From: a virus
Lineage: Duplodnaviria > Heunggongvirae > Uroviricota > Caudoviricetes
Strand: one strand, 5' to 3'
Length of the DNA stretch: 11,180 bases
Virus record (IMG/VR): IMGVR_UViG_2859783438_000004
Shown: in pieces, positions 3,153 to 4,231 of the stretch
Layout: every line of letters begins with the position of its first letter
How positions within the stretch are numbered: the first letter of the stretch is position 1
Translations under genes and position numbers: made by a program
The notes under the pieces: model-generated
Database searches by the model: none
What the model was told of the DNA's origin: nothing
The model's input: the letters and a program-made list of their open reading frames with translations, nothing else

Positions 3153-3428
3153 TTAACTGTTTTTGCCTGGATACTGTCTTCGAGAATGCACAATATTTAC
3201 TACTTCTATGCTTGATGCTGTTACTCGGTAAAGGATGATGTAGTTAGGATGAGTTACAATTTCACGAAGACCAAGAACTCGCTCGCTTGGAGGATACAGG
3301 TAAGGATGCTCTGTGAGCGGCAAAACGGATGTTTCAATTCGAATTTTCATTCTGCGTGCTGCCGCGGGATTTTCTTTAGCTATGTAGCTACGATCTGGCG
3401 CAAATCATCACGAGCAGATGGTAGCCAT
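3153..3428 (-). pseudogene. parE: ParE/RelE-family toxin ORF interrupted by two consecutive in-frame TGA codons after codon 6; only the C-terminal 65 codons (3153-3350) are open from an internal ATG
   Basis: Frame from ATG 3428 reads MATICS-stop-stop-FAPDRSYIAKENPAAARRMKIRIETSVLPLTEHPYLYPPSERVLGLREIVTHPNYIILYRV..; the YIA-x-(D/E)NP-x-AA and NYIILYRV segments are ParE-like. Stops are at 3410-3405. Full frame would be 91 codons. Confidence 0.65.
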
Positions 3429-3441
3429 AAAACGGGTAACA

Positions 3442-3636
3442 TTATTCACCTCTGTGAGTTGCAGCAGCAATTTGGGCAATAATTTGTTCCATTTCCGCCA
3501 TTACCTCATCATGCGGAATCGCCGGGCGGGGATCCGCGAGGCTTGCTGCTACTTTGGCCCGCAGCCATTCGTTGTAACTATTTTCTTGCTCAACTGTCTC
3601 AAATTCTGAAACCATTGGGGAAAGGACTGTACTCAT
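3442..3636 (-). CDS. paaA: PaaA2-like antitoxin (64 aa) of a ParE-type toxin-antitoxin pair
   Basis: MSTVLSPMVSEFETVEQENSYNEWLRAKVAASLADPRPAIPHDEV.. closely resembles my recollection of E. coli O157 PaaA2; AGGAG-type RBS upstream; lies 19 nt after the repressor stop and directly upstream of the ParE-like frame. Confidence 0.7.
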   Translation of the reverse strand: MSTVLSPMVSEFETVEQENSYNEWLRAKVAASLADPRPAIPHDEVMAEMEQIIAQIAAATHRGE

Positions 3637-3655
3637 TTTACATATCTCCTCTGAT

Positions 3656-4156
3656 TTAGGCGCGACGGCCTTTTTGTGCAGCTAACCACCGCGCAACCGT
3701 ACGATCCATTGATTCTTTTTTATCTTTCATCTCCTGAAGCATGTGTTCTTGATCTTCTTTCGGAAAAGCTCTGAACGTATGGATTAAATCTCGTTCCATC
3801 GGCTCTACGGCAAACGGTAGTTCATCCTCTGTTTGTTCTGTGTCTGCTGGTAATGCGACTATGTTATCTTGCTGTGGTTCTCGACAATACATCCTTGCAA
3901 TTTGCAGCAAATCTACCATGTCTGGCCTGATTGACTCAGGGGGAACTTTCAGTAAGCCAGCAAACTTTAGAACAGCCTCAAGGTTTAGTGGGGTTTGACC
4001 ATTTAGGTAGTGACTTACCGCCCCTTGTGTTGAAAACCCCATAATTTCCGCCGCACGTTCCTGAGTCAATCCCAACTGAGATTTCTTTGCCATCCAGATT
4101 TCTTTCAGTCTTCTGGCGGCGTTGAGGTCGGTGTCTGACAATGATTTTCTTTTCAT
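3656..4156 (-). CDS. Prophage repressor, HTH-XRE family, with no recognisable S24 peptidase domain (PaaR/RacR-like)
   Basis: HTH segment LGLTQERAAEIMGFSTQGAVSHYLNGQTPLNLEAVLKFAGLLKV; divergent from the cro-like gene across an operator-bearing spacer. Start taken at ATG 4156; the ORF track extends to a GTG at 4186. No GDSM-type serine motif in the C-terminal half. Confidence 0.8.
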   Translation of the reverse strand: MKRKSLSDTDLNAARRLKEIWMAKKSQLGLTQERAAEIMGFSTQGAVSHYLNGQTPLNLEAVLKFAGLLKVPPESIRPDMVDLLQIARMYCREPQQDNIVALPADTEQTEDELPFAVEPMERDLIHTFRAFPKEDQEHMLQEMKDKKESMDRTVARWLAAQKGRRA

Positions 4157-4191
4157 ACATCCAATTCTAATAAGATTGCTAATCACTTTGA

Positions 4192-4231
4192 AATAGCATC
4201 ACTATTTACTTTTAAAAATAACAGTGCTATT
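4192..4231. promoter_or_regulatory. OR-like operator pair between the divergent repressor and cro-like genes, overlapping a candidate rightward promoter
   Basis: AATAGCATCACTATT (4192-4206) and AATAACAGTGCTATT (4217-4231), each one mismatch from AATAGC-N3-GCTATT; candidate -35 TTTACT (4205-4210) and -10 TATTAA (4228-4233) with 17-bp spacing. Confidence 0.5.

Follow-up and report, generated by a model that had tools for sequence, protein, structure and literature searches.

The window (the whole stretch of 11,180 nucleotides analysed here) carries on its minus strand a repressor gene (3656..4156), a paaA-type antitoxin gene (3442..3636) and a parE toxin gene (3153..3442), the last of which is frameshifted in this sequence. 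Opposite to them, on the plus strand, there are a Cro-like gene in the ydaS position (4268..4531) and ydaT (4528..4953). Over 6,195 bases the window agrees without differences with the Shigella sonnei chromosome CP029794.1 (GCA_002073875.2), and the repressor has S. sonnei counterparts at 99-100%. S. sonnei genomes broadly carry this 1.8-kb module, which at a coverage of at least 80% was also present in 72 of 5,426 complete E. coli genomes. Among 50,697 sequenced phages, no close homologue of the repressor was found: every match stayed below 60% identity, and the best ones were lambda-type cI proteins with 31%. Therefore, the variant is known only from prophages.

Other elements were observed in the neighborhood of the module. 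Two IS1 copies (108-539 and 1782-2213, 432 bp each) have lost the same 336 bp from their interior, at an ACG microhomology, with the N-terminus of InsA joined to the C-terminus of InsB in an ORF of 119 aa. The target-site duplications of the two copies are different (CCGGAAA and ACGGTTG), and full-length IS1 elements occupy the same sites in other S. sonnei genomes; the shared deletion could be either an assembly artefact or the result of gene conversion. The prophage with these insertions is probably not inducible at all. In addition, Rfam recognized two RNAs, C4 antisense (76.7 bits) and isrK (61.2 bits), at 1065-1152 (-) and 1177-1253 (-). They lie just upstream of a gene of the Rha/anti-repressor-like type (516-1004, minus strand), an arrangement that resembles the P1 immI c4-ant and the Gifsy isrK modules and that could offer a non-SOS route to the inactivation of the repressor. 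Since a Pfam Phage_ASH match on the longer ORF 516-1304 overlaps the two RNA genes, the overlapping part of this ORF may be non-coding. At the other end, beyond the genes for prophage replication, DUF1627 and DUF977, a type II restriction-modification pair follows on the plus strand: an Eco57I/N6-type methyltransferase (8656-10488; PADLOC MTase_II, E 1.8e-300) and an endonuclease of the BsuBI/PstI-like type (10485-11180, running off the end of the window).

Genes of the module

The repressor is a 166-aa protein of the HTH_3 type, identified from its ORF and by Pfam, in which three parts could be distinguished: a lambda-cI-like N-terminal domain (NTD, approximately residues 2-90), a disordered linker (92-111) and a PaaR/DicA-type C-terminal domain (CTD) of two helices (119-165). 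An alternative GTG start at 4186 was discarded, as it lies inside the PRM-like promoter described below and the RefSeq relatives are annotated with 166 aa. Residues 2-81 are homologous to the NTD of lambda cI (PDB 1LMB, E 2.9e-9, phmmer), so that the protein has the cI-type HTH N-terminal domain of lambda cI/LexA-type repressors. Foldseek aligned this domain with lambda cI structures at TM 0.85-0.93 when normalised to the lambda chain (rmsd 1-2 A), the same matches giving 0.46-0.51 when normalised to the full-length query. Only the NTD found matches in the PDB with Foldseek; the CTD found none. The AlphaFold model (mean pLDDT 79) consists of a helical NTD, the disordered linker and an all-helical CTD with helices at 119-129 and 133-165.

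The initial annotation had stated that the C-terminus of the repressor has no S24 domain, had considered that induction is probably not by RecA-stimulated autocleavage, and had proposed a domain search of this part of the protein. That search, now run, recognized no autocleavage domain: Peptidase_S24 (PF00717) gave no Pfam match in the repressor even at E<=10, with lambda cI as positive control (E 6.8e-29), and no Pfam domain of any kind was found at E<=10 in the C-terminal 86 aa, which agrees with the helical CTD of the AlphaFold model. The S24 peptidase CTD with a Ser-Lys dyad that is typical of lambda cI and LexA-type repressors is therefore absent. Because the protein lacks this peptidase/dimerisation domain, RecA-mediated cleavage appears to be excluded as a route of induction by the domain content of the repressor, and the related PaaR2 has been reported as unresponsive to mitomycin C (PMC8630535); both claims thus hold.

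The CTD is 52% identical over 44 aa to that of PaaR2 (E 5e-15), whose sequence was recovered from an O157:H7 genome via the published primers, and 56% identical over 64 aa to that of PaaR1 (E 6e-23); the NTD is unrelated to those of both proteins. The first gene of the operon is thus a separate HTH regulator whose homology to PaaR is confined to the CTD, with an NTD of another HTH type. Residues 106-162 also match the C-terminal part (positions 74-130) of the NCBIfam DicA model NF007257 with E 7e-8, a partial match of 32.4 bits versus a cut-off of 101, which leaves the protein outside the DicA family proper.

Downstream of the repressor, after a 19-nt spacer with a GAGGAG ribosome-binding site, the second gene encodes a PaaA-type antitoxin of 64 aa without a DNA-binding domain (Pfam PaaA2 PF21217, E 3e-23; PDB 3ZBE, PaaA2, E 1.4e-23), 75% identical to PaaA2 and 77% to PaaA1. 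Directly 3' of paaA there is a ParE-family toxin gene, recognized by a Pfam ParE_toxin match and by alignment to intact alleles. It starts at the ATG 3442-3440, with a one-base overlap with the paaA stop (TAATG), as in annotated relatives. Of the three same-strand genes first described, the repressor at 3656-4156, PaaA at 3442-3636 and the 19-nt spacer between them stand, while the ParE frame at 3153-3428 had to be abandoned: from the start at 3428 it reads M-A-T-I-C-S and then meets two in-frame stops. The 13-nt spacer previously placed between antitoxin and toxin was an artefact that arose because the wrong parE start had been taken. The intact ParE allele has 96 aa and a full-length Pfam ParE_toxin match (E 1.8e-17); it aligns with ParE2 (PDB 5CW7), whose complex with PaaA2 has a solved structure, with E 6.7e-37, and is 67% identical to ParE2 and 86% to ParE1. 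PADLOC, whose catalogue of defence proteins includes neither PaaA nor ParE, returned no match for the repressor, PaaA or ParE.

In the window, parE lacks a single nucleotide, a plus-strand G missing after position 3386 (between 3386 and 3387), and this is the only difference over 361 bases around the gene from the closest E. coli locus, RMDEC465. The deletion leaves a 20-aa ParE stub that ends at the TAG 3382-3380, and a remnant ORF (3153-3350, 65 aa) that matches only positions 31-89 of the 89 of Pfam ParE_toxin (E 1.2e-7). The toxin reading frame is thus not intact and, since parE is disrupted here, the toxin-antitoxin (TA) function cannot operate in the given sequence. An intact 96-aa parE was present in all nine other S. 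sonnei chromosomes (9/9), the deletion being private to the CP029794.1 assembly. It could be, then, that the frameshift is an assembly or sequencing error and that in the strain itself all three genes of the module are intact and functional, as in the rest of S. sonnei. Of the 10 aligned chromosomes no other has the deletion; a 4.6-kb stretch compared with two near-identical sister genomes differs by single-base indels alone, with zero substitutions; parE was left uncalled in the CP029794.1 contig only, no similar contig being reported for it; and the 336-bp deletion common to both IS1 copies, with full-length IS1 at the same sites elsewhere, suggests consensus problems in this assembly. However, the affected run has just two bases (GG to G) and is no long homopolymer, and in the pseudogene-rich genomes of Shigella the loss of a toxin with retention of its antitoxin is a common route of decay. 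Because of the indel-only differences and the odd shared IS1 deletion, we consider an assembly error and a real mutation equally likely. A genuine deletion would leave repressor and antitoxin as the sole functional parts. In any event, an apparent toxin loss seen in one assembly advises caution on pseudogene calls made from single long-read assemblies.

On the other strand, the Cro-like HTH gene (4268..4531) encodes an 87-aa protein that matches PHROG 35, transcriptional repressor, with E 8e-17. It is 35% identical to its CP-933M counterpart; a match with YdaS of CP-933P was also considered and rejected, as no alignment was found. The following gene, ydaT (4528..4953), encodes a 141-aa analogue of CII (Pfam YdaT_toxin; PHROG 163, CII-like activator, E 3e-40), 77% identical to YdaT of CP-933P. 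At the junction of both genes (4521..4538, plus strand) there is a perfect YdaT box, TTGATT-N6-AATCAA (TTGATTCATGAAAATCAA), which would be the PRE analogue; this is the site footprinted experimentally for CP-933P YdaT (PMC9986795).

Operators, promoters and terminator

The search for AATAGC-N3-GCTATT with up to 2 mismatches yielded 4 sites in the window, located only on both flanks of the module, while 0.47 would be expected by chance window-wide; operator-like sites on both flanks, as had been noted previously, are thus well supported. On the left flank, the motif search predicted two OL-like operators on the minus strand (3055-3069, AATAGCATCATTATT, and 3082-3096, AATAGCATCGCTATT), overlapped by a putative PL-like leftward promoter (3053..3096) that was read by eye, with a -35 TTTACA at 3083-3078 and an extended -10 TGcTATTGT at 3061-3053. 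Its spacer has 19 nt here versus 17 nt in two relatives from E. coli, where two T are missing; the T-run lying in this spacer between the OL sites (3066-3075) also differs in length among S. sonnei assemblies.

On the right flank, the OR region (4164..4233) presents predicted operators at 4169-4183, 4192-4206 and 4217-4231, the first of them weak, since with 3 mismatches it is at chance level taken alone. The centres of the three sites are at 20, 43 and 68 bp from the repressor ATG, versus 19, 42 and 66 bp for OR3, OR2 and OR1 of lambda. A promoter scan placed a PRM-like promoter on the minus strand (-35 TTCAAA at 4192-4187, -10 TAGAAT at 4169-4164, spacer 17) that ends 7 nt before the repressor ATG. 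Its predicted transcription start falls approximately at the ATG at 4156 and, therefore, a leaderless mRNA is predicted. In the opposite direction, the hexamers of a candidate PR-like promoter were read by eye (-35 TTTACT at 4205-4210, TGc TATTAA at 4225-4233). Ten S. sonnei chromosomes show either C or T at 4197, within the OR2-like operator; with T the site becomes the perfect palindrome AATAGT-ATC-ACTATT.

In an E. coli O145 locus of approximately 80% identity the operator half-sites are kept and the central bases vary, and the OL-like half-sites are also conserved in the RMDEC465 locus. Conserved half-sites with changing centres form the pattern that would be expected for operators. Compared with the same O145 locus, which is otherwise approximately 80% identical, the leader that separates the PL-like promoter from the DUF1391 (ydfA-like) gene (2950-3045) shows high conservation. 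Folding of the 125-nt leader between PL and ydfA gave no significant RNA structure (z 0.16), and Rfam had no match in it; a nut-like or other regulatory site might lie inside.

After parE, a hairpin followed by a U-tract (approximately 3110..3144, minus strand, stem at 3117-3138) has the features of an intrinsic terminator. This structure was missed by a simple automatic terminator scan and was therefore folded explicitly, with a dG of -15.1 kcal/mol and a z of -2.73; 1 of 200 shuffled sequences was as stable. The terminator is conserved in relatives, and its presence after the toxin had been correctly anticipated. No convincing promoter or terminator was found between repressor, paaA and parE, and the Rfam search of this interval found nothing. 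Together with the operators and with the position of the PRM-like promoter at the repressor ATG, the lack of such internal signals points to the repressor as regulator also of the TA pair, as had been suggested before.

Comparison with known immunity regions and proposed mechanism

The paaR2-paaA2-parE2 system of the cryptic prophage CP-933P of E. coli O157:H7 (Hallez 2010; PMC8630535) presents the same three-gene order and leftward orientation as the module of the window. Both modules are placed between OR and OL/PL, divergent from ydaS-ydaT and ahead of the replication genes, and they are also alike in the absence of S24, in a promoter placed for a leaderless start and in an identical YdaT box. 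In contrast, PaaR2 has 123 aa and an unrelated NTD, whereas the NTD of the window repressor is a true homologue of that of lambda cI; the operators of CP-933P are repeats of the GTTTAGTAA type and not AATAGC-N3-GCTATT; YdaS cannot be aligned with the Cro-like protein of the window; and the window toxin is frameshifted in the CP029794.1 assembly.

Work on CP-933P has shown that PaaR2, made from a leaderless mRNA, is an analogue of CI (Jurenas 2021, PMC8630535), a term applied to it despite the lack of sequence similarity to CI, and that it binds OR and represses PR, PRM and the PL/OL analogue (PMC8630535). PaaR2 has no peptidase motif, YdaS and YdaT act like Cro and CII, and the locus is bistable and addictive (PMC8630535), with paaA2-parE2 replacing rexA and rexB (Prolic-Kalinsek 2023, PMC9986795). 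Leaderless mRNAs have been shown for both cI and paaR2, PaaR2 is octameric, and its role as TA regulator has been demonstrated experimentally in CP-933P. Repression of the operon by its regulator, and post-segregational killing that depends on ClpXP/ClpAP, are known for the PaaR2 system only.

The closest TA pair is that of paaR1-paaA1-parE1 of CP-933M (PaaA 77%, ParE 86%), which we located in O157:H7 PV15-279 (L014:3967-4874) and which is followed by the same DUF1391 (ydfA-like) gene; it differs in PaaR1, of 133 aa and with a DicA-like HTH, not a cI-like NTD. Regarding lambda, the NTDs are approximately 45% identical over the first 80 residues, as counted from the alignment (34-40% by Foldseek), and, as read from the alignment, the window repressor keeps the acidic residues of helix 2 that correspond to E34 and D38 of lambda. 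The three-site OR spacing is alike, and so are the cargo genes placed between repressor and terminator, ahead of OL/PL; the S24 peptidase/dimerisation CTD of lambda is absent here, and the recognition helix and the operators are different. The cargo of lambda is RexAB and that of the window a ParE-family TA pair, with no homology between them and only the position shared; homology to RexA, RexB or catalogued defence proteins was not found. DicA (Qin) and RacR (Rac) of E. coli K-12 are likewise short non-cleavable repressors without S24, from prophages of dicB/ydfA-type or ydaS/ydaT-type that are comparable to that of the window, but the NTD is of another type and the window repressor scores far below the DicA cut-off. 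To our knowledge, the Qin and Rac immunity regions of K-12 have no paaA-parE pair.

The comparison with the lambda annotation bears out the placement of the pair in the slot of rexA-rexB, as proposed in the initial annotation, and the identities with the O157 paralogues (PaaA 75-77%, ParE 67-86%, regulator CTD 52-56%) do the same for membership in the paaR-paaA-parE family, whose location in a lambdoid immunity region, divergent from ydaS-ydaT, is also found here. We therefore propose, with a probability of about 0.85, that a defective lambdoid prophage (Qin/Rac/CP-933-like) of S. sonnei has its immunity module here, and that this module is a heteroimmune member of the paaR-paaA-parE three-component family. 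Since the TA proteins are similar to those of CP-933P and CP-933M, and YdaT to that of CP-933P, while the Cro-like protein cannot be aligned with YdaS of CP-933P, the locus is by sequence a mosaic, in which TA cargo, ydaT and the repressor tail are shared, and the repressor head, the cro-like gene and the operators swapped. The interpretation given in the initial annotation is right, but the literature already contains it for paaR2-paaA2-parE2 of CP-933P (PMC8630535; PMC9986795); the new element is a head of the cI type joined to a tail of the PaaR type.

CP-933P gives an experimental precedent for every step of the mechanism that we propose by analogy with PaaR2 and with lambda. The 166-aa repressor would bind AATAGC-N3-GCTATT at OR and OL through its lambda-cI-type NTD, and oligomerise through the short helical PaaR/DicA-type CTD. 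In this way it would shut PR, and with it the cro-like gene, ydaT and the replication genes, as well as PL, with ydfA and beyond. It would also regulate its own PRM-like promoter, from which a leaderless repressor-paaA-parE transcript would run to the hairpin at 3110-3144, and YdaT, acting at its perfect TTGATT-N6-AATCAA box, would provide a CII/PRE-like second route into the operon. PaaA would neutralise ParE, a stable toxin that would act without opposition once the region is lost, so that the TA pair would be an addiction cargo in the rexAB slot. On the other hand, in the CP-933P model system single-cell data showed ParE2 activation in neither of its transcriptional states. Lacking S24, the repressor would not be inactivated by RecA-stimulated self-cleavage.

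The absence of S24 would not amount to non-inducibility if the repressor responded to SOS indirectly, through an antirepressor such as the Rha/Ant-like protein of 516-1004 with its upstream C4-like and isrK-like RNAs. In P1 and the Gifsy phages, non-cleavable repressors are under antirepressor control, and here the C4 (76.7 bits) and isrK (61.2 bits) matches lie immediately upstream of a gene that matches Rha and anti-repressor PHROGs. However, a LexA-box search of the whole window found only one-mismatch matches at chance level, the Rha-like gene belongs to the PL operon that the repressor itself would silence and is here separated from PL by IS1, and the homologous PaaR2 system is reported not to respond to mitomycin C; this possibility is thus rather improbable.

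That the HTH protein is solely a dedicated TA regulator or "split antitoxin", an idea weighed for PaaR2 by its authors (PMC8630535), with the flanking repeats serving TA autoregulation alone, is very unlikely: PaaA, without a DNA-binding domain, does require some regulator, but the operator motif recurs approximately 1.1 kb away, past the terminator, where a PL-like promoter points towards the early-left genes, the OR geometry copies OR1-3 of lambda, the NTD is a cI homologue, the CTD is common to DicA, repressor of the prophage Qin, a related repressor precedes other cargo (HipA_2 plus DUF3037), and PaaR2 was shown to repress PR and PL.

Repressor heads, tails and cargo

Among the homologues of the repressor, proteins of 244-255 aa (P0013-P0023) have a cI-like NTD followed by a complete DicA/PaaR1-like HTH and then by the shared CTD, that is, a tandem HTH. 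In loci of one variant, P0018 (metagenome contigs L016:3001-5360, L017 and L018), a HipA_2-family gene plus DUF3037 replaces paaA-parE, and a cro-like gene and ydaT are again found opposite the repressor; the HipA_2/DUF3037 content of the slot is known from the loci of this single variant (L016-L018). Tentatively, and as a speculation that we hold to be doubtful, the repressors of this group of prophages could have been built by shuffling DNA-binding heads onto a shared helical oligomerisation tail (the PaaR/DicA CTD). The 244-aa tandem-HTH relatives could then be evolutionary intermediates or dual-specificity repressors, and the position that follows the repressor would be a hot-spot for cargo in general (rexAB, paaA-parE, hipA-like plus DUF3037). 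If this were true, the hybrid of lambda-cI head and PaaR tail in the window would be a hard-wired, non-inducible cI with an OR geometry of the lambda type.

The finding has little weight beyond annotation, as the architecture and the logic were already worked out for CP-933P. Nevertheless, the variant ties the PaaR family to lambda cI by a real homology of the NTD in sequence and fold, with matching operator spacing, and this natural hybrid of a cI head and a PaaR tail is tractable for studying the exchange of immunity-specificity and oligomerisation modules.
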